This document shows, one piece after another, positions 6,572 through 59,770 of a stretch of DNA of 64,000 nt. Source of the stretch: an uncultured Acidobacteriota bacterium (GTDB taxonomy: Bacteria > Acidobacteriota > Vicinamibacteria > Vicinamibacterales > SCN-69-37); assembly GCA_963798795.1 (NCBI GenBank), contig CAWCUZ010000001.1, forward strand, positions 1,076,729-1,140,728, given 5' to 3'. Position 1 is the stretch's first letter; the number at the start of each line of letters is the position of its first letter. Both the position numbers and the translations under genes were made by a program. Under the pieces are notes generated by a model. The model had not been told where the DNA came from. It did not search any database and worked only from the letters and a program-made list of their open reading frames with translations.

Positions 6572-7912
6572 TGCCTGCTCCTCCTGACCTTGTGGCCGCA
6601 GGCGCCGCAGTGGATTGACGCGTACCGGGCGCCGGCCGCGCGACTGCTGCAGGCGGCGCAGGCCGACGACCACGCGTGGCGGCGGCTCGCCGAGCTCACT
6701 GATACCTACGGCAACCGCCTGTCCGGCTCGCGCACCCTCGAGCAGGCGATCGACTGGGCCGTCGCCACCATGAAGGCTGACGGACTCGAGAACGTGCACA
6801 AGGAGCCGGTCATGGTGCCGCACTGGGTGCGCGGGCGCGAGAGCCTGACGCTGCTCTCGCCCGTCGAACAGCCGCTCGTGATGATCGGCCTCGGCAATTC
6901 GGTGGGCACGCCGGCCGGTGGCGTCGAAGGCGACGTCGTCGTCGTCGGCAGCTTCGACGACCTGCAGACGCGCGCGGCGGACGTGAAGGGCCGGATCGTG
7001 CTCTTCAACGTGCCGTTCACGAACTACGGCGAGACGGTGGTCTATCGCACGATCGGGCCGTCACGCGTGGCGCAGCTCGGAGCGATCGCCATGCTGCTGC
7101 GGTCGGTTGGGCCGCCGGGACTGCGCACACCGCACACCGGCGTCACCCACTACGCCGACGGCGTGCCGCAGATTCCCGCGGCGGCCATTCCCACCGAGGA
7201 CGCCGATCGGTTCCAGCGCTTGCAGGACCGCGGCGCACCCATCCGCGTCCGCCTGATGATGGAGGGCCGCTTCGAGCCCGATTCGCAGTCCTATAACGTC
7301 GTCGGCGAGCTGCGCGGCCGCGAGCTGCCCGACCAGGTCGTGCTCGTCGGCGGACACATCGACTCGTGGGACGTCGGCGCCGGCGCCACCGACGACGGTG
7401 GGGGGTGCATTGCCACCTGGGAGGCGGTCCGGTTGATGAAGGCGCTCAATCTGCGGCCCCGGCGAACGGTGCGCGTCGTGCTCTTCACCAACGAGGAGAA
7501 CGGCGCGCGCGGCGGCGCGGGCTACCGCGACGCACATCGCGCCGAGCTCGACAACCATCTCGTGCTGCTCGAGTCGGACGGCGGCGTGTTCAAGCCGACC
7601 GGCTTCGGGTTCACCGGTCCGGACGAGTCGAGGGCGACCGTCAGGACGATCGCGGGCCTGCTGGCGCCGATCGGCGCCACGGCCGTCCAGTCCGCCGGCG
7701 GCGGCACCGACATCGAGCCCGCCGCGACCGAGGGCCACGTCCCGATGCTCGAGCACCTGGACGAGGGCGAGTACTTCCTCATCCACCACACGCCCGCCGA
7801 CACCATCGCGCGGATCGACCCGCAGCAACTCGCGCAGAACGTCGGCGCGATCGCGGTGATGGCGTACACGACCGCCGACCTGCCGTTCCCGTTCCGGCCG
7901 GGCACGCGCTAG
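6566..7912 (+). CDS. M28-family aminopeptidase with a PA domain, secreted.
   Basis: ORF 6539..7912. It has a PA-domain stretch (GDVVVVGSFDDLQTRAADVKGRIVLFN) and M28 metal-ligand context (VVLVGGHIDSWDVGAGATDDGGG, VVLFTNEENGARGG). ATG 6566 (MICLLLLTLW) is preferred over TTG 6539. The frame is intact. Confidence 0.85.
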   Translation: MICLLLLTLWPQAPQWIDAYRAPAARLLQAAQADDHAWRRLAELTDTYGNRLSGSRTLEQAIDWAVATMKADGLENVHKEPVMVPHWVRGRESLTLLSPVEQPLVMIGLGNSVGTPAGGVEGDVVVVGSFDDLQTRAADVKGRIVLFNVPFTNYGETVVYRTIGPSRVAQLGAIAMLLRSVGPPGLRTPHTGVTHYADGVPQIPAAAIPTEDADRFQRLQDRGAPIRVRLMMEGRFEPDSQSYNVVGELRGRELPDQVVLVGGHIDSWDVGAGATDDGGGCIATWEAVRLMKALNLRPRRTVRVVLFTNEENGARGGAGYRDAHRAELDNHLVLLESDGGVFKPTGFGFTGPDESRATVRTIAGLLAPIGATAVQSAGGGTDIEPAATEGHVPMLEHLDEGEYFLIHHTPADTIARIDPQQLAQNVGAIAVMAYTTADLPFPFRPGTR

Positions 7913-7938
7913 ACGTCCGCCCGCCAATGGAGGACGGT

Positions 7939-8001
7939 CGCCGGGGCTGAAGACCCGGCGCTCCAGGGAACGGATGGAGCCCCGGGGCTGCAGCCCCGGG
8001 G
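7939..8001. terminator. Two GC-rich hairpins between convergent genes, probably a bidirectional terminator.
   Basis: A 7-bp stem cgccggg/cccggcg with a loop containing ctgaa lies at 7939-7960. A perfect 22-nt palindrome ccccggggctgcagccccgggg lies at 7980-8001. Both sit between the M28 stop (7912) and the ChaN stop (8007). Confidence 0.55.
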
Positions 8002-8006
8002 ACGCG

Positions 8007-8930
8007 TCAGTCTTCCTTCAGCGTGTAGACGAGAAAATCGGCGCGCGCGCGCTCCCTCTCGTCCGGCGCGAGCGCGTCGAGGTTGTCCACCGGCAGCACG
8101 GAAATGACGACGACGCGCCGGCCCGGGAGGCGGCGCATGGCCCGTGCGGCCGTGCCCTCGTGGAAATCGGTATGGAACGCGCCGTTGAAATGCACGACGA
8201 GCGGATACTTGCCGCCGGCCGACGCGGCCTCATAGGCCTGCGCCACCGATTCGCCCATCGTCTCGTCCTTGAGACACTGGGCGAGATAGAAGCGCTCGAG
8301 CGTCTGGCGCGCGGCGGTTGCCGCGTGCTCGTCTCCCCCTTCGGCGCCGGGATGCCCGCTCATCGCCTCGCCGAACCGCTTGAAGTAGTCGTCGTCGGTC
8401 GGACACTGCAGGTCGGCGGCGAACCATCTTCGTTCGAGTTCCGGCAGGTTCTTCAGCGCACCCAGGCCCGATTTGGACACGTCAGACGCGACCTGCCGCG
8501 GCACGTTCGTGGCGATCACGGGCCAGTCGTGCGCAATGGCCAGATCGACGAGCGGCTTGTAGTCGGTCGCATAGCGCGGCCAGGGCCGCGAATCCGCCAG
8601 GAATGCGGCCTCATCCTCATGCCCCATGGCGAAATGGTCGAGCGACTCCTGCACGTCGCGCTCGAACATCTCGAGCCCGACCGTGATGTCGGCGCGCCGG
8701 CGCGCGAGTCCTTCGAGCACCGCCAGCTCCAGCACGTGTGTGTTGGGATCGTCGTGCTGTTCGCCGACGAAGACCACGTCGGCCGTCACCAGCCGCGCCA
8801 GCATCGTCTCGAAGTCCGCGAACTGCCCGCGGGAGGTGTCGAATACGCGCTGCGGCACGTAGCGCGCCTGCGCGTGCATCACGACCCCGGCCGACACCGC
8901 CATCGCCGCCACCACGAGAAGACGTCTCAT
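8007..8930 (-). CDS. ChaN-family (haem-binding / Tiki-like) lipoprotein.
   Basis: This is the C-terminal 307 aa of ORF 8007..9122, starting at MRRLLVVAAMAVSAGVVMHA. ChaN-like motifs are present: VVFVGEQHDDPNTHVLELAVLEGL, VGLEMFERDVQ, YKPLVDLA, and HFNGAFHTDFHEGT. Confidence 0.7.
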   Translation of the reverse strand: MRRLLVVAAMAVSAGVVMHAQARYVPQRVFDTSRGQFADFETMLARLVTADVVFVGEQHDDPNTHVLELAVLEGLARRRADITVGLEMFERDVQESLDHFAMGHEDEAAFLADSRPWPRYATDYKPLVDLAIAHDWPVIATNVPRQVASDVSKSGLGALKNLPELERRWFAADLQCPTDDDYFKRFGEAMSGHPGAEGGDEHAATAARQTLERFYLAQCLKDETMGESVAQAYEAASAGGKYPLVVHFNGAFHTDFHEGTAARAMRRLPGRRVVVISVLPVDNLDALAPDERERARADFLVYTLKED

Positions 8931-8971
8931 ACGGTGACTATACGGTCCCGATGGGAGCGCGTAAACGCGTG

Positions 8972-11116
8972 TTATTTCCCAAACCGGACCTGCAGCTCGG
9001 CCCAGCCGGTCGCTTCGAGGTACTCGATGCGCAGACGATGCCGCCCGCCGTCGAGCGCGATGTGATCGACGACCGATTCGTGCACGGACCAGCGGTCGAG
9101 CGCCAGGCGTCCGTCCACCCACACGCGCACGCCATCGTCGCTGATGACGGTCATGTCGGTTGAGCCGGCCGGCAGTTGCACGTCGCCGTCGGCGCGCAGG
9201 GCGACGCGGTCGGGTGGCAGGTCCGGCGCCAGGGCGCCGCCGCTGAGGTAGTCGAGGTGACGGGCCTCGACCGTCTTGATCGGCTTGCCACGCAGGACGG
9301 CCGCGAACGCATCCGGCGCTGTCACCGGATCGGCCGTCTCGCTGTAGGTCCAGAACGACACGCGCCAGTCGACAGCCGGATCGAACTGCGTGTAGCCGAA
9401 CGGCACACGGGCACCGGCAGCATAGTGCACGCCCCGCGGCGTGACGACCTCGGCGCCGACATAGTCGAGGGTGATCGCGAGGTCCGTGCCGTCGCCGTCG
9501 ATCTGCACCGCGACATCGCCGGGGACATCACCCGACCGCGCGGTCAGGCGCCCGCCGGTGATTGACGCCAGCATCCACTGTCCGGGCGGACCGAGCACGC
9601 GGAGCTTCAGCGGCCGATCGCCCGGCCGGCCCGCGGGCCACGCCTTCGGCGACCGATAGTCGTACGGTCCCCACTCGTCGACGATGATGGCGTCGCGGCC
9701 GCGGCGGGCGCCGGCGGGAAGCCGCGCGGCCGTGGAACGCGGGCCGGGCGGCGCAGCGGGCAGGTCCGACCGCGTGGGAGGTGACGCCGGCTCGAATGCC
9801 AGCGCGCGCACGTCCGCACCCGTCTGAAGCGGCACGCCGACCCGGTCGTAGCGGTTGCCGGACACGTTGACATCGCTTGTGCGCAGCAGGTTCAGCGCGG
9901 TCTTGTTGCCGCTGAACGTGTTGCCGTCGATGGTGTAGTCGTGGCTGCGGGTGTCGCGCGTCTTCGGATAGCCCCAGTTCGGGTCCTGCGACGCGTTGGC
10001 CCACACGCGAATCGCGGTCTCGTCTCCATCGAACCGGTTGTCGGCGATGACGATGTGCTGGCCGTGCTCGATGGCGATGCCGTCGGTGTTCTTCGAGAAG
10101 CTGTTGTCGATGAAGTACGTGTCGAAGCTGTAACCGCCCCACACGCCGTGCCAGCAGTCGTCGATGCGATTGCCGAAGAACCGGTTGCGGCTGAACGTGG
10201 CCTCGATGCCGTTGGCGACCGCGTGGCTGAAGTCGTTCCCGACGAACACGTTGTCGTTCGCGCCCCCCTGCCCCGTGTCCATCGTCGACTGCCCCGCCCA
10301 CAGGAAGAGCCCGTCGCCGCCGTGCGTCGCCGAGTTGTCGGCGACGAGGTTGCGGCTCGACTGCTCGTACATCAGGAGCGCGGCCGAGTCCTGGCCGCGG
10401 TTGTAGAACCCGTGGCTGTATCCGCGCACATCCCAGTCGAGACGGTTGCGCGCGATGGTGCTGTCGGTCGTCCGATAGAGGCCGATGCCCAGCCCCGACA
10501 TCCACGAGAAGGTGTTGTCGGTGACGGTCAGGCGCGCCGACCGCGTGACCATCAGGCCGTTCTGCCCCTGGACGGCGGTGTTGCCGCTGACCTCGGCTTC
10601 GTCGCAATCGGCCAGGTAGACGGCGGCGCCGTAGCGCAGCCACTGGTCGTGTTCGTTGTCGTGGTGCGTGAGCCAGTCGACGAGGCTCTCCTTTTCGATG
10701 CCGCTCCACAGCCGCGCCTTCCAGTTGTAGCTGAAGTCGTTGTCGACGAGGTGCAGGCGCGGCGAGTGCCGGCCGAGCACGGCGACCTTGTAGCCGCGGA
10801 CCGCGGCGTGGCGAATCGTGACGTCGGCTCCGCCCTCGACCAGGATACCGGTGCCCGAGTAGCCGTCCGGCTCCGCGATCGGATCGCCGCCTTCGATCGT
10901 GACGCCGGTGAAATCGACAACGACGTGTTCGCCGCGAACGGTGATGGCGGGCGTGTCGACATCGGCGCTGGCGAGCCGATAGGTGCCCGGGCGAATCCTG
11001 ACCGAGTGGTCGATGACCATGCCGCCGACCGGCGTGACGAGCGGCGGCGCTTGACGCGCGCTCGCCACCGCGCCGGCGGCGACCAGGCCCGCGACGGTCA
11101 GCAGTCGAAGTCTCAT
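8972..11116 (-). CDS. Secreted right-handed parallel beta-helix repeat protein with a C-terminal PA14-like domain.
   Basis: ORF of 714 aa with signal peptide MRLRLLTVAGLVAAGAVASA. It carries repeated NxxxxN/G beta-helix turns (VSGNTAVQGQNGLMV, VTDNTFSWMSGLGIGL, ADNSATHGGDGLFLW, VGNDFSHAVANGIEA). The C-terminal part (VISDDGVRVWVDGRLALDRWSVHESVVDHIALDGGRHRLRIEYLEATGWAELQVRF) is PA14-like. The frame is intact. Confidence 0.75.
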   Translation of the reverse strand: MRLRLLTVAGLVAAGAVASARQAPPLVTPVGGMVIDHSVRIRPGTYRLASADVDTPAITVRGEHVVVDFTGVTIEGGDPIAEPDGYSGTGILVEGGADVTIRHAAVRGYKVAVLGRHSPRLHLVDNDFSYNWKARLWSGIEKESLVDWLTHHDNEHDQWLRYGAAVYLADCDEAEVSGNTAVQGQNGLMVTRSARLTVTDNTFSWMSGLGIGLYRTTDSTIARNRLDWDVRGYSHGFYNRGQDSAALLMYEQSSRNLVADNSATHGGDGLFLWAGQSTMDTGQGGANDNVFVGNDFSHAVANGIEATFSRNRFFGNRIDDCWHGVWGGYSFDTYFIDNSFSKNTDGIAIEHGQHIVIADNRFDGDETAIRVWANASQDPNWGYPKTRDTRSHDYTIDGNTFSGNKTALNLLRTSDVNVSGNRYDRVGVPLQTGADVRALAFEPASPPTRSDLPAAPPGPRSTAARLPAGARRGRDAIIVDEWGPYDYRSPKAWPAGRPGDRPLKLRVLGPPGQWMLASITGGRLTARSGDVPGDVAVQIDGDGTDLAITLDYVGAEVVTPRGVHYAAGARVPFGYTQFDPAVDWRVSFWTYSETADPVTAPDAFAAVLRGKPIKTVEARHLDYLSGGALAPDLPPDRVALRADGDVQLPAGSTDMTVISDDGVRVWVDGRLALDRWSVHESVVDHIALDGGRHRLRIEYLEATGWAELQVRFGK

Positions 11117-47913: not shown

Positions 47914-48933
47914 CTACCGGTTGCGGAAGTACTTGATCTGCCACTTCGCGACGTTGCGGTTGTGCTCGGCCAGCGTCGTCGCGAAGGCGTGCGTACCGTC
48001 GTTCTTGCTCACGAAATAGAGATACGGCACGTCCGCGGGGTGCACGGCCGCTTCGAGGGAGGCGCGCCCCGGCGAGGCGATCGGACCGGGCGGAAGTCCC
48101 GCGTACCGGTAGGTGTTGTACGGCGAATCGATCTGCAGGTCCTTCTTCGACAGGTTGCGGTTCCACCGCCCGGCCAGCATCAGCGCGTAGATCACGGTCG
48201 GGTCGCATTGCAGCACCATGCCGCGCGCCAGGCGGTTCTCGTAGACGGCGGCGATGATCGGCCGTTCGTCCGGCTGGGCCGTTTCCTTCTCCACGATGGA
48301 CGCGATCGTCACGACGTCGTGCGCGCTCAAGTGCCGCTCCGCCGCCGCGGCACGCAGTTGCGCGTCGAACGCGCGGGCGAAGCCGGCCACCATGGCGGCC
48401 ACCGTGCCCTCGGCCCCCGCCCTGCGCGGCAGCGAATAGGTATCCGGGAACAGGTAGCCCTCCAGGTTCGCGGCGCCGGGATCGAACGTCGCGATGGGCG
48501 ACGGATCCGCGGCCGCCGCCCGGAAGGCATCGGCCGTGCCGAGCCCGCTGTTCGCGAAGATGTCCCCCATCTCGGCGATCGTGCGGCCCTCGGGGAAGGT
48601 GACAGTTCGGGTGAACACGTCGCCGCGCGCGAGGCGCGCGACGACCTCGCCCGGCCTGGCCGCGTCCGCAAAGCGGTATTCGCCGGCCTGTAGCCGGCGG
48701 TCCTCGCCGGCCAGCCGGGCGGCCACCCGGAACGTCAGCTCGTCCGGCACGACACCCGCCTGCGTGAGGAGTCGTCCGATGGTGCTCACGCTGGCCCCGG
48801 CCGGCAGTTCGACGAACACCTCGTCGCCGGCAAAGCCGCGATAGGGCGTGACGAGCTGCTGCCGCAACCACCAGCCGGCGGCGGCCGCCGCCGCAAGCCC
48901 GAGCAGGACCAGCACCAGAAGCGCGCGGCGCAT
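47914..48933 (-). CDS. mltG: Endolytic murein transglycosylase MltG (YceG).
   Basis: ORF 47914..49074 from MRRALLVLVLLGLAAAAAAGWW. It has VTFPEGRTIAEM, LEGYLFPDTY, ASIVEKET, VYENRLARGMVLQCDPTVIYA, SPYNTYRYAGLPPGPIASPG and LYFVSKNDGTHAF. Confidence 0.9.
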   Translation of the reverse strand: MRRALLVLVLLGLAAAAAAGWWLRQQLVTPYRGFAGDEVFVELPAGASVSTIGRLLTQAGVVPDELTFRVAARLAGEDRRLQAGEYRFADAARPGEVVARLARGDVFTRTVTFPEGRTIAEMGDIFANSGLGTADAFRAAAADPSPIATFDPGAANLEGYLFPDTYSLPRRAGAEGTVAAMVAGFARAFDAQLRAAAAERHLSAHDVVTIASIVEKETAQPDERPIIAAVYENRLARGMVLQCDPTVIYALMLAGRWNRNLSKKDLQIDSPYNTYRYAGLPPGPIASPGRASLEAAVHPADVPYLYFVSKNDGTHAFATTLAEHNRNVAKWQIKYFRNR

Positions 48934-48934
48934 G

Positions 48935-49405
48935 TCAGCCTCCCGCGGTGGCGCGGCGCGCGGCCGGGCCGAGCGCGGAATCCAGGAAGTCCTGCAGGAT
49001 GATGGCGGCGGCCGCGGCATCCAGCCGGGCCTTGCGCCGCCGCCAGTCACGCTCGCGCTCGGCGAGCCGGGCATCGGCCTCGTGACTCGTCAGTCGCTCG
49101 TCCTGCAGATGGACGGGCAGCGACGTCGCCGCCGCCAACGCGTCCGTGAACGCGCGCACCGCCGGCGTCTGCTCGTTGTCCTCGCCGTTCAGCCGCCGCG
49201 GCAGGCCGACGACGACCGCGGCAATGCCGGCCGCGTCGTCGTCCTGCTTCCGCCACTCGTCGAGAAGGGCGGCCAGCCTGACGGCCGAGTCGCGCGGCGT
49301 GGCGCCCGCCGCCAGGGTCTGCCACGGACGCGCCAGGACCCCTGTGCCGTCCGACAGCGCCAGGCCGATTCGCCGCCGCCCGTAGTCCACGCCGAGGACC
49401 CGCAT
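48935..49405 (-). CDS. ruvX: YqgF/RuvX putative pre-16S rRNA nuclease (Holliday junction resolvase-like).
   Basis: ORF of 156 aa with MRVLGVDYGRRRIGLALSD, VVGLPRRLNGEDNEQ, DERLTSHEA and AAAAIILQDFLD. Confidence 0.9.
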   Translation of the reverse strand: MRVLGVDYGRRRIGLALSDGTGVLARPWQTLAAGATPRDSAVRLAALLDEWRKQDDDAAGIAAVVVGLPRRLNGEDNEQTPAVRAFTDALAAATSLPVHLQDERLTSHEADARLAERERDWRRRKARLDAAAAAIILQDFLDSALGPAARRATAGG

Positions 49406-49554
49406 ACCACTAAGCGTATTACGGTCCGAGGCCGTGTCGAGGTGAGGGCGGGCCTGCCCCGCTTTGCAGGGACTGACCCGCTGGCCGGTTCGGCGCGATC
49501 CGCCCGGATGCCAGGGCAGGCGTCTGACAGCGCCACTTGGGCGATAATGCCTTC

Positions 49555-50715
49555 ATGTCCTCGAAGTCCCGCTGGGTTATCTTTCTGATTTCGACCCCGC
49601 TCGTCGTGTTCACCGCCGTCGGCGGCCTGCTGGGCGCGTCGGCGGCGCAGTCGGAAAGCTTCACCCATCTGAAGGTGTTCGAGGACGTCGTGTCGCTCAT
49701 CGTCAGCGCCTACGTCGAACCCGTCGATGCCGACAAGGTCATGGAAGGCGCCATGCGCGGCCTGGCCGATGGCCTCGACCCGGCGAGCGCGTACCTGACG
49801 CCCGATGACGTGGCGACGCTCCAGGCGGGCACTCCGCTGCCGGCCGGGGACGTGGGGCTGACGGTCACCCGCCAGTTCTATCTGCGCGTGGTCGGCGTCC
49901 GGGACGGGTCGCCGGCGGCGCGCGCGGGACTGCGGACCGGCGATTACATTCGAGCCATCGACGGCAAGCCGACGCGGGATGTCTCGGCGTTCACCGGCAC
50001 ACGCTGGCTGCATGGCGATCCCGGATCCAAAGTCGAATTGACGGTCATTCGAGGCAACGCAGCCGATCCGCACGTCATGCCCCTGGTCCGCGAGGCACCG
50101 GCCCGGGAACTGGTAACGGGCCGGACGATGCCGACCGGCGAAGGCTACGTGCGCATCGTCAGTTTCCGGGAGGGCGCTGCGGCGGCGCTGCGGAGCCGGA
50201 TCGCGGCACTCCAGAAGTCCGGGGTCGCGATGGCCGTCATCGACCTGCGCGGCGTGGCGGACGGACCGCCGGAGGAAGGCATTGCCGCCGCGCGGCTGTT
50301 CGTCAAAGAGGGGACCATCGCCATCCGCCAGGGCCGCGGCCCCGATCGCACCACCATCGAAGCCGGGTCCGGTGACGGCGCGCTGACGCTGCCGATCGTC
50401 CTGCTCGTGTCGAACGGCACGGCGAATGCCGCCGAGGTTTTTGCGGCCGCCCTCGACGGCCACGACCGGGCGGACCTGGTCGGCGAGCCGACCGCGGGAC
50501 TGGCCGCTCTGCAGCATCTGGTGCTCCTGCCCGAAAATCGCGGCCTGTGGATGACCTACGAGCGCTATCTCACGCTGAACGGCGACCCCCTCCACGAGCG
50601 CGGCTTGCGGCCCGACGTGGTCGTGGAAGAACCGGTCGTCGGATTCGACGAGACGCCGCCGGCCACCGACGAGCCGCTCAACACGGCGCTCGCACGGCTT
50701 CACGGGAAGTCATAA
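49555..50715 (+). CDS. S41 (C-terminal processing peptidase) homologue with a PDZ domain. Both catalytic-dyad positions are substituted.
   Basis: ORF 49537..50715, using ATG 49555 (MSSKSRWVIFLISTPLVVF). The PDZ domain is GLTVTRQFYLRVVGVRDGSPAARAGLRTGDYIRAIDG. The S41 core is VIDLRGVADGP...IVLLVSNGTANAAEVFAAALDGHDRADLVGEPTAGLAALQ, where the family consensus is GSASASE...TFGKGxxQ. Confidence 0.8.
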   Translation: MSSKSRWVIFLISTPLVVFTAVGGLLGASAAQSESFTHLKVFEDVVSLIVSAYVEPVDADKVMEGAMRGLADGLDPASAYLTPDDVATLQAGTPLPAGDVGLTVTRQFYLRVVGVRDGSPAARAGLRTGDYIRAIDGKPTRDVSAFTGTRWLHGDPGSKVELTVIRGNAADPHVMPLVREAPARELVTGRTMPTGEGYVRIVSFREGAAAALRSRIAALQKSGVAMAVIDLRGVADGPPEEGIAAARLFVKEGTIAIRQGRGPDRTTIEAGSGDGALTLPIVLLVSNGTANAAEVFAAALDGHDRADLVGEPTAGLAALQHLVLLPENRGLWMTYERYLTLNGDPLHERGLRPDVVVEEPVVGFDETPPATDEPLNTALARLHGKS

Positions 50716-50891: not shown

Positions 50892-50968
50892 AGGCGCGTA
50901 GCTCAGCTGGTTAGAGCGCCTGCTTGACATGCAGGAGGTCGGCGGTTCGAGTCCGCCCGTGCCTACCA
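50892..50968 (+). tRNA. tRNA-Val (anticodon GAC) with CCA encoded.
   Basis: A cloverleaf can be read by hand. The acceptor stem is aggcgcg/cgtgcct (one G-U pair). The D-arm is gctc-agctggtta-gagc. The anticodon arm is cctgc-ttGACat-gcagg. The variable loop is aggtc. The T-arm is ggcgg-ttcgagt-ccgcc. The discriminator is A, followed by CCA. Confidence 0.9.
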
Positions 50969-51052: not shown

Positions 51053-52984
51053 GTGTCTGCTTCGATCACAATCACCCTGCCCGATGGATCCCAGCGCCCC
51101 GTGCCGCGCGGCACGACGGTGCAGGCGTTCGCCTCCGAAGCGGTGCCCCCCGGCGTGCTGCGCAAGGCGCTGGCGGCGTCGGTCGACGGCCGCCTCGTGG
51201 ATCTGAACGCTCCGCTCGAGGGGAACGGCACGGTGAAGCTCGTGACGCCGGACGACCCGAACGCGCTGCCGCTCTACCGGCACTCGACGGCGCACCTGCT
51301 CGCGGCGGCGGTGACGCAACTGTTTCCCGGGGCGCAGTGCGGCATCGGACCGGCCACCGACGAGGGCTTCTTCTACGACTTCGTCGTCGACCGGCCGTTC
51401 GTGCCGGAGGATCTGGAGCAGATCGAGGCGCGGATGCGGGAACTGGCGCGCGAGGACCTGCCGTACGAGCGGCAAATGTGGCCGCGCGACGAGGCCATCG
51501 CGTTCTTCACCGAACGCGGCGAGCCACTGAAGGTGCAGCTCATCGAAGAGAAGACCGCCGGCCAGCGCACCGTCTCCTGCTACGCGATCAAGGATCGCGA
51601 GACCTTCGTGGATTTCTGCATCGGGCCGCACGTGCCGTCCACCGGCCGGCTGAAGGCGTTCAAGCTGCTCAATGCCTCGAACGCCTACTGGAAGGGCGAT
51701 GCGCACAACCAGCCGATGCAGCGGATCTCCGGCACGGCCTTCTTCAAGGAAGACGAGCTGAAGCAGCATCTGCATCGGATCGAGGAAGCGAAGAAGCGCG
51801 ACCACCGCAGGCTCGGGCGCGAGCTTGGCCTCTTCATGTTCCATCCCTGGTCGCCGGGCGCCGCGTTCTGGCTGGGCAAGGGGACGACGCTCTACAACCT
51901 CCTCGCCGCGTACATGCGCGGGGTGCTCTTCCCGGCGGGCTACCAGGAAGTCAAGACGCCGCTCGTCTACAACAAGGCGCTCTGGGAGACGTCGGGCCAC
52001 TGGCAGCACTACCGCAAGAACATGTTCCTGGTGGAGTCCGAGGACGCCGAGATGGGCTTCAAGGCCATGAACTGCCCCGGCCACATGCTGGTGTTCGCGC
52101 AGGAGACCCGCAGTTATCGCGACCTCCCGCTGCGCCTCCACGAACAGACGCCGCTCCATCGCAACGAGGCCTCGGGCGTGCTGTCGGGCCTCACGCGCGT
52201 CCGGCAGTTCGCTCAGGACGACGCGCACTGCTTCGTCATGGAGTCGCAGATCGGCGAGGAGGTCGAGCGGCTGCTCGGCCTCGTCAAGCGGGTCTACGGC
52301 GACTTCGGCCTCGAGTACGACGTCAAGCTGTCGACCCGGCCCGAGGAGTATCTCGGCGAGCGGGCCACCTGGGACCACGCCGAAGCGGAGTTGAAGAACG
52401 CGCTCGAGGCCGCCGGCGTGCCGTATCGGATCAACGACGGCGACGGCGCGTTCTACGGCCCCAAGGTCGACTTCGACGTCAGGGACGCCATCGGCCGGAC
52501 GTGGCAGTGCGCTACCATCCAGCTCGACTACCAGATCCCCACGCGCTTCGACCTGAAGTACATCGGGGCCGACAACGCCGAACACCGTCCGGTGGTCATC
52601 CACCGCGCGATCTTCGGCAGTTTCGAGCGGTTCATCGCGCTCCTCATCGAGCACTACGCGGGCGCGTTCCCGCTCTGGCTGGCGCCCGTCCAGGCGATCG
52701 TGCTGCCGATCGCCGACCGGCACGCGCCCTACGCCGGGACGGTCCGCGACCGGCTGGCCGTGGCCGGGCTGCGCGTCGAACTGGACGGACGGCAGGAGAA
52801 GATTGGTTATAAGATTCGGGAAGCCCAGCTGCAGAAGGTGCCGTACATGCTCGTCATCGGCGACCGGGAAGCGGCCGAAGGCACGGTGGCGGTGCGGAGC
52901 CGCGCCGCGGGCGATCAGGGTGCCCGCGCGGTGGAGGCGTTTCTCGACGCGGCGCGCGCCGAGATCGCGGAGCGGCGTTCCTAG
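51053..52984 (+). CDS. thrS: Threonine--tRNA ligase.
   Basis: ORF of 643 aa, intact, with a GTG start. It has a TGS domain (ITLPDGSQRPVPRGTTV), HSTAHLLAAAV, FCIGPHVPSTG, RDHRRLGRELGLF, MNCPGH, and RVRQFAQDDAHCF. Confidence 0.95.
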   Translation: MSASITITLPDGSQRPVPRGTTVQAFASEAVPPGVLRKALAASVDGRLVDLNAPLEGNGTVKLVTPDDPNALPLYRHSTAHLLAAAVTQLFPGAQCGIGPATDEGFFYDFVVDRPFVPEDLEQIEARMRELAREDLPYERQMWPRDEAIAFFTERGEPLKVQLIEEKTAGQRTVSCYAIKDRETFVDFCIGPHVPSTGRLKAFKLLNASNAYWKGDAHNQPMQRISGTAFFKEDELKQHLHRIEEAKKRDHRRLGRELGLFMFHPWSPGAAFWLGKGTTLYNLLAAYMRGVLFPAGYQEVKTPLVYNKALWETSGHWQHYRKNMFLVESEDAEMGFKAMNCPGHMLVFAQETRSYRDLPLRLHEQTPLHRNEASGVLSGLTRVRQFAQDDAHCFVMESQIGEEVERLLGLVKRVYGDFGLEYDVKLSTRPEEYLGERATWDHAEAELKNALEAAGVPYRINDGDGAFYGPKVDFDVRDAIGRTWQCATIQLDYQIPTRFDLKYIGADNAEHRPVVIHRAIFGSFERFIALLIEHYAGAFPLWLAPVQAIVLPIADRHAPYAGTVRDRLAVAGLRVELDGRQEKIGYKIREAQLQKVPYMLVIGDREAAEGTVAVRSRAAGDQGARAVEAFLDAARAEIAERRS

Positions 52985-57346: not shown

Positions 57347-57622
57347 ATGGCACGCACCGGGACCACCGTGGATCTTCAGCCCATCGACCGACTGGAAGAA
57401 AAAGTCCGGCAACTCGTCGGCGTGATCGACACGCTGCGCGCCGAACGCGCCAAGGCGCTCGACGAAGCGGCCCGGCTGCAGCGCGAGCTCGAAACGGCGC
57501 GCGCCCGGCTCGGCGAGGCCGCCGGCGCCTCGGCCGAGGTGACGTCGCTGCGCGAGGAGCGCGAGCTCATCCGCAATCGCGTCGTGCAGATGATTGCGCA
57601 GATCGACAAGCTCGGCCTCTAG
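57347..57622 (+). CDS. ZapB-like coiled-coil cell-division protein.
   Basis: ORF of 91 aa with heptad-rich sequence (LEEKVRQLVGVIDTLRAERAKALDEAARLQRELETARARL). It sits immediately upstream of zapA. Confidence 0.6.
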   Translation: MARTGTTVDLQPIDRLEEKVRQLVGVIDTLRAERAKALDEAARLQRELETARARLGEAAGASAEVTSLREERELIRNRVVQMIAQIDKLGL

Positions 57623-57632
57623 ATTCCCGCTC

Positions 57633-57950
57633 ATGGAGAGCCGCGTCATTCACGTCGATATCCACGGCCAGCGCTACGCCATCCGCAGCGCGCTCGACGG
57701 GGCGTACGTGTGCGAGCTGGCGGCCTACCTCGACGAGAAGATGCGGCTCGCCGCCGCCGAGCTCCAGAGCGCCGACACGATGCGGATTGCCGTCGTCGCC
57801 GCATTGAACGTGGCGGACGAGCTGTTTCGTGCACGCGCCGACAGCCGCGGCGTCGAGGGCCGGCTCCTCGACCGCACCGCCGAAATCGAGCGGCTCGTGG
57901 ATGCGGTGCTCGCCGGCGCCGATGAACGCGCCGTCGCCGCCAACAGCTGA
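57633..57950 (+). CDS. zapA: Cell division protein ZapA.
   Basis: ORF 57594..57950 from MESRVIHVDIHGQRYAIRSALDGAYVCELAAYLDEKMRLAA...RIAVVAALNVADELF. Confidence 0.8.
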   Translation: MESRVIHVDIHGQRYAIRSALDGAYVCELAAYLDEKMRLAAAELQSADTMRIAVVAALNVADELFRARADSRGVEGRLLDRTAEIERLVDAVLAGADERAVAANS

Positions 57951-57984: not shown

Positions 57985-58176
57985 GGACTTCGAGTTCCCT
58001 GCTTTGCACGTGATGGTTCGGAGTGTCGCTTGAGCCAACGTCACGTCCAAAGTGAGCCGCGACGTTGCGTGGTGTGCATGCCTCCGCAGTGAGGAAGCCT
58101 GAAGCGCGACTTCTCGAGTGGCTCCACCTGCTTTGCAGGTTCATCCGACCTCCCCACACGGCAAAGCGGGGTCCTT
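57985..58176 (+). ncRNA. ssrS: 6S RNA (SsrS). The ends are approximate.
   Basis: It fills the non-coding gap after zapA, which is the classical zapA-ssrS synteny. The closing helix pairs CCCUGCUUUGC (57997-58007) with GCAAAGCGGGG (58161-58171). The core GGUGUGCAUGC-CCUCcgcaguGAGG-AAGCCUGAAGCGCGAC (58070-58110) closely parallels the E. coli 6S segment GGUGAGCAUGC-hairpin-AAGCCUUAAAACUGCGAC as I recall it. A possible -10 box TAAGAT lies at 57973-57978. Confidence 0.75.
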
Positions 58177-58180
58177 TCCG

Positions 58181-59189
58181 ATGACGACTGTCGCCGCGCT
58201 CGGTGAGCGCGCGCTCGTCGAGCGCGTGCGGCAGCGCGCTGGCGCGGCCCCCCCCTACGTCGCGCTCGGGATCGGCGACGACGCCGCGGCGATCGAACCC
58301 GAGCGCGGCACGATCGACGTCCTGACCACCGACAGTCTCATCGAAGACGTGCACTTCCGGCGGGCCACCACACCACTGGCGGCCGTGGGGCACAAGGCGC
58401 TCGCCGTCAATCTCAGCGACCTCGCCGCCATGGGCGCTCGACCGCGCGCCGCGCTGCTCAGCCTCGCCCTGCCGCCCGATCTCCACGATCGCCGACTTCG
58501 ACGCCCTGCTCGACGGACTGCTGGCGCTGGCCGTCGATTCGAAATGTCCCCTGATCGGCGGCAACATGGCACGTTCTCCGGGACCGGTCGTGGTGGATGT
58601 GACCGTGGCCGGCGCCGTCCGGCGTCGGCACCTCCTCACCCGCGGCGGCGGACGTCCCGGTGATGAGCTCTACGTGACCGGCCGGCTGGGCGCCGCGGCG
58701 GCGGGCTGGTCCATGCTCGAGGCCGGACGAGCGCGGGCCGATCTGGACGCGGCGGCCGGCGAATGCGTGGTCCGCTACGAGCGCCCCGCCCCTCGACTTC
58801 GCTGCGGCTGGGCCGTCGCCCGCACCCGCGCCGCGCGTGCCTGCATGGACCTGTCCGACGGCCTGGCCGACGCCGCCCGCCAGATGGCCGCGGCGGCCGG
58901 TCTGGGTGTCATCGTCGAAACCAGCCGCGTGCCCGTTCACCCCGGCGCCCGCGACTGGGCCGCCGGTTCCGGGGGCGACGCGCTGAACTGGGCCCTCTCA
59001 GGGGGTGAGGACTACGAGTTGCTGTTCGCCGTCGCGCCGAGGTCTCGGCGGAAGTTCCTGGCTGCTGTCGGCCGATGCCGGCACGTGAATGTGACGCTGG
59101 TCGGGCACCTGACCGCCCAGGCCGGCGCGTGGCTCCAGAACCCCGACGGCCGTCTGCAGCCGTTGCCAGAGGGCTTTTCGCACTTCTGA
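58181..59189 (+). pseudogene. thiL: Thiamine-monophosphate kinase with one frameshift.
   Basis: ORF 58118..58663 from MTTVAALGERALVERV carries GIGDDAAAIEP, TTDSLIEDVHF, GHKALAVNLSDLAAMGARP and LLSLALPPDL. The continuation TIADFDALLDGLLALAVDSKCPLIGGNMARSPGPVVVDVTVAG... is in the frame of ORF 58566..59189, which also holds CMDLSDGLADA and LSGGEDYELLFA. An extra base lies near 58483. Confidence 0.85.
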
Positions 59190-59302: not shown

Positions 59303-59770
59303 ATGTTCCTGTCCCGGTCGATACGGCGGAAGCTGCTGGCGACTGCCCTGAGCGCGCTCGGGTTCGTCCTGCTGTACGAGGCGTCCACGATCGATTCCCA
59401 CACCATCGCCAGTCTGGCGGCACAGTCGGGCGTGGCGCCCCGGTTCGCGGCGGGATCTCAGGCGCAGTTCACGGCCACCGCCTACTGCAAGGGACAGACG
59501 ACGGCCTCGGGCGTGGCGGTCCGGTCGGGCATCGTCGCCGCCGACCCCAACCTGCTCCCGCTCGGATCCGTCATCCGAATCGACGACGGGCCCGAGCGCT
59601 ATCGCGGGATCTACACCGTGATGGACACCGGCCCGAAGGTGCAGGGCCGGCACATCGACGTCTACATCTGGAGCTGCTACGAAGCGCTCGACTTCGGGCG
59701 GCGGTCGCTGAACGTCACGGTGCTCCGCCACGGGTATCGTCCGAACGATCTGGCCCGGCGCGGCAACTGA
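59303..59770 (+). CDS. 3D-domain (MltA/RlpA-like double-psi beta-barrel) protein, membrane anchored.
   Basis: ORF of 155 aa with a TM anchor LLATALSALGFVLLY and the 3D domain FTATAYCKGQTTASGVAVRSGIVAADPNLLPLGSVIRIDD...YTVMDTGPKVQGRHIDVYIWS. Confidence 0.75.
   Translation: MFLSRSIRRKLLATALSALGFVLLYEASTIDSHTIASLAAQSGVAPRFAAGSQAQFTATAYCKGQTTASGVAVRSGIVAADPNLLPLGSVIRIDDGPERYRGIYTVMDTGPKVQGRHIDVYIWSCYEALDFGRRSLNVTVLRHGYRPNDLARRGN

Follow-up and report, generated by a model that had tools for sequence, protein, structure and literature searches.

We describe here a homologue of the S41 family of C-terminal processing peptidases (CTPs) in which both residues of the catalytic Ser/Lys dyad are replaced. 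Its gene lies at 49537-50715 in a stretch of 64,000 nucleotides, referred to below as the window, from an uncultured Acidobacteriota bacterium of the order Vicinamibacterales (GenBank assembly GCA_963798795.1, contig CAWCUZ010000001.1, positions 1,076,729 to 1,140,728 of the forward strand). The protein is CtpA-like in domain order and predicted fold, carries Asn and Leu in the place of the catalytic Ser and Lys, and is encoded by a gene under purifying selection. A first-pass annotation, made from the sequence alone, had regarded it as probably a maintained pseudo-protease. The present analysis upheld that view through the loss of the dyad across a whole clade, the purifying selection and the retained fold, and showed that the family is far broader than the single orthologue group then supposed. 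We consider, with moderate confidence, that the protein is a non-catalytic, PDZ-dependent binding partner of peptidoglycan-synthesis enzymes.

Replacement of both catalytic residues

The gene and the three positions of the former active site are as follows.

49537-50715, + strand: gene of the dyad-less CtpA-like S41 homologue, defined by the open reading frame (ORF) list, the Pfam architecture and a 100% identical database protein, P0001
50425-50427, + strand: codon AAT, Asn297 in the catalytic Ser column, from phmmer, MAFFT and hidden Markov model (HMM) alignments
50500-50502, + strand: codon CTG, Leu322 in the catalytic Lys column, from the same three kinds of alignment
50512-50514, + strand: codon CAG, Gln326, the retained third residue of the Ser-Lys-Gln triad, invariant in 86 orthologues

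Translated from the TTG codon at 49537 the protein has 392 amino acids, and from the ATG codon at 49555 it has 386, the latter form being identical with P0001. When it was compared with the PDB by phmmer, its GTANAAE motif paired with GSASAAE of Pseudomonas aeruginosa CtpA and its TAGLAALQ with SFGKGSVQ, and the Ala of the engineered S302A mutant of CtpA (7rqh) shared a column with the Asn of the window protein. A custom HMM, built from 97 S41 homologues (37 confirmed Ser/Lys representatives and 60 canonical-profile hits, only about half of them fitting the strict dyad pattern), aligned Asn with the consensus Ser and Leu with the consensus Lys, the posterior probability being maximal at both. 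Identical catalytic columns were obtained in a MAFFT alignment with 150 cluster representatives. The characterised triads are Ser302-Lys327-Gln331 in CtpA and Ser309-Lys334-Gln338 in CtpB, with a Ser-to-Lys spacing of 25 residues (PMC8764530). The two corresponding columns of the window protein are likewise 25 residues apart, as in CtpA S302/K327 and CtpB S309/K334, and Gln326 follows four residues after the Lys column, as expected. The three alignments agree, thereby confirming the Ser to Asn and Lys to Leu replacements, the spacing and the downstream Gln claimed from the sequence, and the profile alignment did not place a Ser and a Lys of the protein at the catalytic columns. Among the features of an active CTP, the Gln and a PDZ domain with its carboxylate-binding loop are present, and the Ser nucleophile of the motif G-S/T-A-S-A-S/A-E and the Lys base of F-G-K-G are absent. 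Since both the nucleophile and the general base are replaced, the protein, as judged from its sequence and the known mechanism of the family, cannot hydrolyse peptide bonds by the S41 Ser/Lys route.

Domain architecture and structure model

The domains and segments of the window protein were delimited as follows.

49573-49638, + strand: N-terminal hydrophobic segment, residues 13-34, mean column identity 0.82
49642-49797, + strand: CtpB_N-like N-terminal dimerisation region, residues 36-87 (PF22694, 29.2 bits against a cut-off of 27)
49879-50061, + strand: PDZ domain, residues 115-175 (PDZ_6 and PDZ_2 Pfam matches)
50143-50625, + strand: Peptidase_S41 core, residues 203-363 (PF03572, E 5.9e-30, 104.5 bits against a cut-off of 24)
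50671-50706, + strand: predicted C-terminal helix, residues 379-390 (helix 373-384 in the AlphaFold2 model of the 386-residue form)

The protein is a member of the S41/CtpA family by homology and fold, and it clears the Pfam threshold for this family. Its score against the TIGR00225 (prc) model of NCBIfam was 174.1 bits, under the curated cut-off of 218.6. Since it falls short of this cut-off and has neither of the two catalytic residues, it should not be filed as an active CTP. The PDZ domain and S41 core named by the first-pass annotation agree with the Pfam analysis, which finds the CtpB_N-like, PDZ and Peptidase_S41 matches; the signal anchor that it also named is deduced from conservation. 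High conservation of the kind seen in the hydrophobic segment is unusual for a cleaved signal peptide. Because the segment is that conserved, and because a Ser and a Gly in it persist in Terriglobales and Bryobacterales relatives at 33-50% identity, it is probably a functional membrane anchor rather than a cleaved signal peptide. The x-hydrophobic-G-hydrophobic carboxylate-binding loop reads DVGL (residues 106-109), lies just upstream of the PDZ match and is kept in the orthologues. The C-terminal helix carries the motif D..L.KA.E.L, conserved in the orthologues and in Terriglobales relatives, and matches in position the C-terminal helix of P. aeruginosa CtpA, which is a dimerisation element in that enzyme (PMC8764530).

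The AlphaFold2 model, computed on the orthologue alignment, had a mean predicted local distance difference test score of 87.3 and a predicted template modelling score of 0.82, with low confidence only in the first 35 residues. In a Foldseek search of the PDB the best matches were the CtpA structures of Helicobacter pylori (9jr1, 9ku0) and P. aeruginosa (8sxe-h), with E-values of about 1e-34 and template modelling (TM) scores of about 0.75, followed by CtpB, D1 protease and Prc. The structure prediction called for earlier gave a model that superposes on both CtpA proteins at a TM score of 0.75. In this model the CtpA fold is shown to be retained, and the N- and C-terminal oligomerisation elements appear to be kept.

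Conservation of the gene and selection acting on it

The 120 closest database homologues, at 62-70% identity, came mostly from soil metagenomes, the only one with a taxon name being an Acidobacteria metagenome-assembled genome (MAG). Their Ser column held N in 49, G in 52 and S in only 2 sequences, with occasional D, H, Y, R or E, and in nearly all of them the Lys column was L, I or M. Scanning the GTDB species genomes yielded 41 loci, nearly all labelled Vicinamibacterales or Acidobacteriota. In the full-length syntenic orthologues among them the Lys column was L, I or R without exception (33 of 33) and the Ser column was N or G in 32; the remaining orthologue, L001, has a Ser there yet is without the Lys. 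The window protein is not a lone variant, and the orthologue survey that had been called for speaks for a dyad lost throughout the group.

The reading frame is intact in the window and in more than 30 species-level genomes. Pairwise ratios of nonsynonymous to synonymous substitution rates (dN/dS, Nei-Gojobori method) were 0.04-0.17 for the closer pairs; the exceptional pair L026-L027 gave 0.42, a value probably raised by assembly errors. In the same genome pairs the neighbouring genes gave 0.07-0.20 (mltG), 0.05-0.30 (ruvX), 0.03-0.19 (nadK) and 0.04-0.18 (thrS), and tlyA was likewise comparable. Thus the S41 homologue is as constrained as its housekeeping neighbours and is under purifying selection, which answers the dN/dS check suggested with the original pseudo-protease claim.

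Conservation along the protein was measured on an alignment of 86 orthologues, to which the following values refer. The motif G-T-A-x-A-A-E was near-invariant, and its sole variable position, x, is that of the former nucleophile. Thr319, Gly321 and Gln326 were invariant, and the tunnel motifs of the S41 core were conserved. Mean column identity was highest in the PDZ domain (0.83), followed by the N-terminal hydrophobic segment (0.82), the N-terminal dimerisation region (0.78), the S41 core (0.74), the C-terminus (0.67) and the linker after the hydrophobic segment (0.49).

A large clade of dyad-less CtpA-like proteins in Acidobacteriota

HMMER, run in full over 1.84 billion cluster representatives, returned 1735 proteins at E<=1e-30. 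Among the best 150 representatives 102 were full-length: 50 of these were without both residues, 43 had the canonical Ser/Lys pair and 9 were without one residue only. The Ser column of the 50 double-loss representatives was mostly G, and their Lys column was R, L, I, V, A, M or D. A rough neighbour-joining tree, to be read as indicative only, gathered the canonical proteins into one cluster and spread the dyad-less ones over several deep lineages, whose source names were Vicinamibacterales, Bryobacterales, Terriglobales and 'uncultured Acidobacteriota'. A profile search with distant dyad-less members gave 119 new hits; in all of them the Ser was replaced by G and the Lys by V, D, E, M, A or T, and those with names were Terriglobales. 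A canonical-Ser/Lys profile made from GC-rich representatives returned only proteins of Myxococcota and Deltaproteobacteria, the nearest canonical relatives.

The Acidobacteriota clade of dyad-less CtpA-like proteins is a grouping defined in the present analysis by CtpA architecture, residues other than Ser and Lys in the two catalytic columns, and purifying selection, and the window protein has all of these. It is a large family across several orders of the phylum and apparently undescribed; no description of natural dyad-less bacterial CTPs was found among 8 million full-text papers, subscription-only papers not being covered. Losses of a single residue suggest that inactivation within the S41 family may have been stepwise or repeated. 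Among the single-loss representatives, P0180, P0192, P0208 and P0257 have lost the Ser and kept the Lys, and P0154, P0193 and P0264 have kept the Ser and lost the Lys.

Gene pairing with class A penicillin-binding proteins in Terriglobales

The strongest contextual link of the dead homologues is with class A penicillin-binding proteins (PBPs), and it is found in Terriglobales, not in the window. Four Terriglobales loci (L042-44 and L047) have a gene for a class A PBP (Transgly and Transpeptidase domains) 98-226 bp downstream of the dead homologue and on the same strand. We examined 80 further metagenome loci, 73 of which had room downstream. Direct same-strand pairing upstream of a class A PBP was found in 47 of the 73, and in 12 more the PBP lay 0.6-4 kb downstream; the genes upstream of the dead homologue vary between Terriglobales loci. 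Among the 80 loci the motif was readable in 77, all with Gly in the place of the Ser and Asp, Glu, Thr or Asn in that of the Lys.

The paired PBPs of these metagenome loci (L051-L130) share a conserved C-terminal sequence, QK[VL]DTPD.AP[AG]x[DE]E[TSA]H-COOH, preceded by a Pro-rich linker that varies. By its sequence this tail looks like a candidate short linear binding motif. Examples of paired PBP genes are those at 7346-9517 of L066 and 9316-11535 of L047. Other Terriglobales loci (L045/46, L049 and L048) are without the PBP. Downstream of the dead homologue, a 196-residue ORF with no Pfam match was seen at 9350-9940 in both L045 and L046 and at 7300-7890 in L049, not in L048; its product could be an alternative partner candidate.

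Genomic neighbourhood in Vicinamibacterales

The genes that flank the S41 homologue in the window are as follows.

47914-49074, - strand: mltG, a lytic transglycosylase of the YceG family (PF02618, E 4.6e-89)
48935-49405, - strand: ruvX (PF03652, E 1.8e-35), divergent from the S41 homologue across a 131-bp intergenic gap
50892-50968, + strand: tRNA-Val(GAC), found by ARAGORN between the S41 homologue and thrS
51053-52984, + strand: thrS, heading the thrS-infC-rpmI-rplT-pheS-pheT cluster

Gene order in the window runs from tlyA and nadK through mltG and ruvX on the - strand to the S41 homologue, tRNA-Val(GAC), thrS, infC and onward on the + strand. The synteny mltG<-ruvX<-...->S41 homologue->tRNA-Val->thrS is kept down to 47% identity (L050), and the cluster headed by thrS follows the S41 homologue in every related locus that reaches that far. 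In about 13 of 34 loci fewer than 150 bp separate ruvX from the S41 homologue, and about 21 loci carry an insertion of 2-5 kb between the two. In L004 the insertion (7813-9912) is a gene for a 699-residue protein of the type I phosphodiesterase / nucleotide pyrophosphatase family, not a cell-wall gene. The position next to mltG and ruvX, to which the first-pass annotation had drawn attention, therefore holds for the window and as conserved synteny, but direct adjacency is limited to the roughly 13 loci with the short gap. The small 3D-domain protein that it had also placed nearby is no immediate neighbour, as its ORF (59303-59770, + strand) lies 8.6 kb downstream of the S41 homologue. No LbcA-like tetratricopeptide repeat gene was seen near the S41 homologue, and no relevant motif resembling the PBP tail was found in the window.

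Judging by the translation, mltG probably begins at the ATG codon in position 48936 and overlaps the stop codon of ruvX (48934-48937). This overlap suggests that ruvX and mltG are translationally coupled. Further downstream, a zapA homologue follows pheT (57594-57950, + strand). An AIRS N-terminal domain (ORF 58118-58663) and an AIRS_C domain (ORF 58566-59189), both on the + strand, lie in different frames, and the two ORFs, spanning 58118-59189, look like a thiL-like gene split by a frameshift, real or due to assembly error. Two MAGs labelled Acidimicrobiia (L009 and L035) show the full Vicinamibacterales synteny with an S41 homologue 61-64% identical to the window protein; these bins are probably mislabelled or contaminated.

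Proposed function

In active CTPs the PDZ domain recognises the C-terminal tails of substrates, which thread into the tunnel. We propose that the S41 homologue, placed at the periplasmic face of the inner membrane, would use its PDZ domain and substrate tunnel to bind, and not to cut, a partner in peptidoglycan glycan-strand synthesis, and may thereby act as an adaptor, regulator or protector. For Terriglobales this partner would probably be the class A PBP of the next gene downstream, with its conserved C-terminal tail resembling a ligand for the PDZ domain or the tunnel. In Vicinamibacterales MltG is the only cell-wall neighbour and no PBP gene is nearby, so the partner there is less certain. 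A PDZ-dependent binding role is consistent with the PDZ domain being the most conserved region of the sequence. Among the active enzymes, Prc targets PBP3, MepS and MltG (PMC7481392), and CtpA with LbcA targets endopeptidases (PMC12772221). Since active CTPs thus act on wall enzymes, and since the dead homologues adjoin either MltG or a tailed class A PBP, a non-catalytic partner of the enzymes of glycan-strand synthesis or termination appears to be the most economical reading.

Several observations weigh against this proposal. The link to PBPs comes from relatives only about 35-38% identical to the window protein, and neither the window nor any of the 41 Vicinamibacterales loci contains a class A PBP gene. 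Direct adjacency to ruvX and mltG is found in only about one third of the Vicinamibacterales loci. MltG ends at the edge of its YceG domain with a basic stretch and no separate tail motif, and with no distinct C-terminal tail there is no support for its C-terminus as the PDZ ligand. The tail of the PBPs, acidic and with His as its last residue, differs from what the PDZ domains of characterised CTPs prefer, namely non-polar C-termini. Moreover, the partner is inferred from gene order only.

More tentatively, the dead homologues and their neighbours may represent a protease and its substrate 'frozen' as a pair. The ancestor would have been a CTP acting on the C-terminal tail of a peptidoglycan synthase; after losing catalysis it would have become a dedicated, membrane-anchored cofactor that grips the ...DTPD.AP...E-x-H tail of the class A PBP, possibly together with MltG in Vicinamibacterales, and so controls the polymerisation or termination of glycan strands. 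We regard this history as a speculative extension, a good deal less secure than the binding role itself. We know of no description of a lineage-specific class A PBP regulator in Acidobacteriota.

Alternative explanations

The window protein could instead be a dead subunit that co-assembles with an active CTP paralogue, or titrates its substrates or adaptors, and thus tunes proteolysis as other inactive protease paralogues do. Retention of the N-terminal dimerisation region and C-terminal helix that build the CtpA and CtpB oligomers, together with the conserved tunnel motifs and Gln, is what such a subunit would show. An active paralogue should then exist; however, no second S41 gene was found in the 64-kb window, in the 41 related Vicinamibacterales loci (up to 10 kb of flank) or beside any Terriglobales homologue, and the nearest canonical Ser/Lys proteins belong to Myxococcota and Deltaproteobacteria, not to Acidobacteriota. 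We consider this explanation rather unlikely.

More doubtful still is a role for the former active site as a pocket for a small molecule or peptidoglycan fragment, as in retinol-binding protein 3 (IRBP), which would make the protein a sensor or carrier. Gly predominates in the Ser column and would leave a larger cavity; many lineages carry a hydrophobic residue (L, I, V, M) in the Lys column and the PBP-linked lineage an acidic one (D, E); the motif around the former nucleophile is invariant; and IRBP is weakly similar to residues 287-363 of the window protein. However, a precise site is made unlikely by the range of residues accepted in the Ser column (N, G, H, D, Y, R, E and S), the most conserved region is the PDZ domain and not the core, and no ligand is known.

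That the protein still acts as a protease through a different nucleophile and base is very improbable. Gln326, Thr319 and Glu300 near the old site are invariant, and orthologue L001 has a Ser in the nucleophile column, but L001 is without the Lys, and that column is Gly in about half of the close relatives and in all Terriglobales members. Moreover, the 86 orthologues have no invariant or nearly invariant Lys at any position and no conserved Ser in the S41 core, their few invariant Ser residues lying only in the N-terminal region and the PDZ domain; an alternative Ser/Lys dyad was rejected on these grounds. A decaying pseudogene or an assembly error, for which nothing speaks beyond the loss of the dyad itself, is refuted by the low dN/dS, the frame kept intact among species and the thousands of homologues in public data.

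Comparison with known systems

The protein that we regard as a non-catalytic partner of peptidoglycan enzymes is closest to CtpA of P. aeruginosa (which works with LbcA) and of H. pylori, the best match both by sequence (E 2e-46, about 30% identity) and by structure (TM score 0.75). It shares with them the order of N-terminal dimerisation region, PDZ domain, S41 core and C-terminal helix, as well as the 25-residue spacing and the Gln, and differs in having Asn/Leu for Ser/Lys, a TIGR00225 score below the cut-off and a conserved N-terminal hydrophobic segment. Prc (Tsp) of Escherichia coli, which works with NlpI, is likewise an S41/PDZ protein, and its targets are of the protein classes encoded beside the dead homologues, namely MltG here and class A PBPs in Terriglobales; in contrast, it is a much larger, active, soluble protease with a distant similarity to the window protein (E 3e-20). 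CtpB of Bacillus subtilis has in common with it the PDZ-gated tunnel architecture, the triad geometry of Ser309-Lys334-Gln338 and the region behind the CtpB_N-like Pfam match, but is an active signalling protease in sporulation, whereas the window protein is without the dyad.

Among S41 proteins without catalytic residues, IRBP is the vertebrate non-peptidase homologue, in which the S41 fold is used for binding. The window protein gives a weak partial match to 9frx. IRBP is eukaryotic, consists of tandem modules, has no PDZ domain and shares no descent within the CtpA subfamily, whereas the window protein is a bacterial single module with a PDZ domain. A functional analogy is offered by the degenerate LytM factors EnvC, NlpD and DipM, cell-envelope hydrolase folds that no longer have their catalytic residues and have turned into regulators or hubs for peptidoglycan enzymes (PMC12772221). 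Their M23 metallopeptidase fold is unrelated, and the regulatory role demonstrated for them is one that we infer for the window protein.

Dead hydrolase folds such as EnvC and NlpD have proved to be key regulators of cell-wall enzymes, and active CTPs already control PBP3, MepS, MltG and further wall enzymes. If the dead homologues are indeed partners of class A PBPs or MltG, they would form a new class of regulators of peptidoglycan synthases in Acidobacteriota, a soil phylum that is abundant and little studied and from which cultured Terriglobales are available for testing the hypothesis. The named homologues carry the labels 'S41 family peptidase' or 'carboxyl-terminal processing protease', and the homologue searches suggest that this mislabelling probably reaches thousands of database entries, for which the label implies an activity that is almost certainly lost. 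Compared with CtpA, Prc and CtpB the scaffold of the window protein is familiar; what is new is a dead form of it that several orders of a single phylum conserve and that is linked to genes for peptidoglycan synthases.

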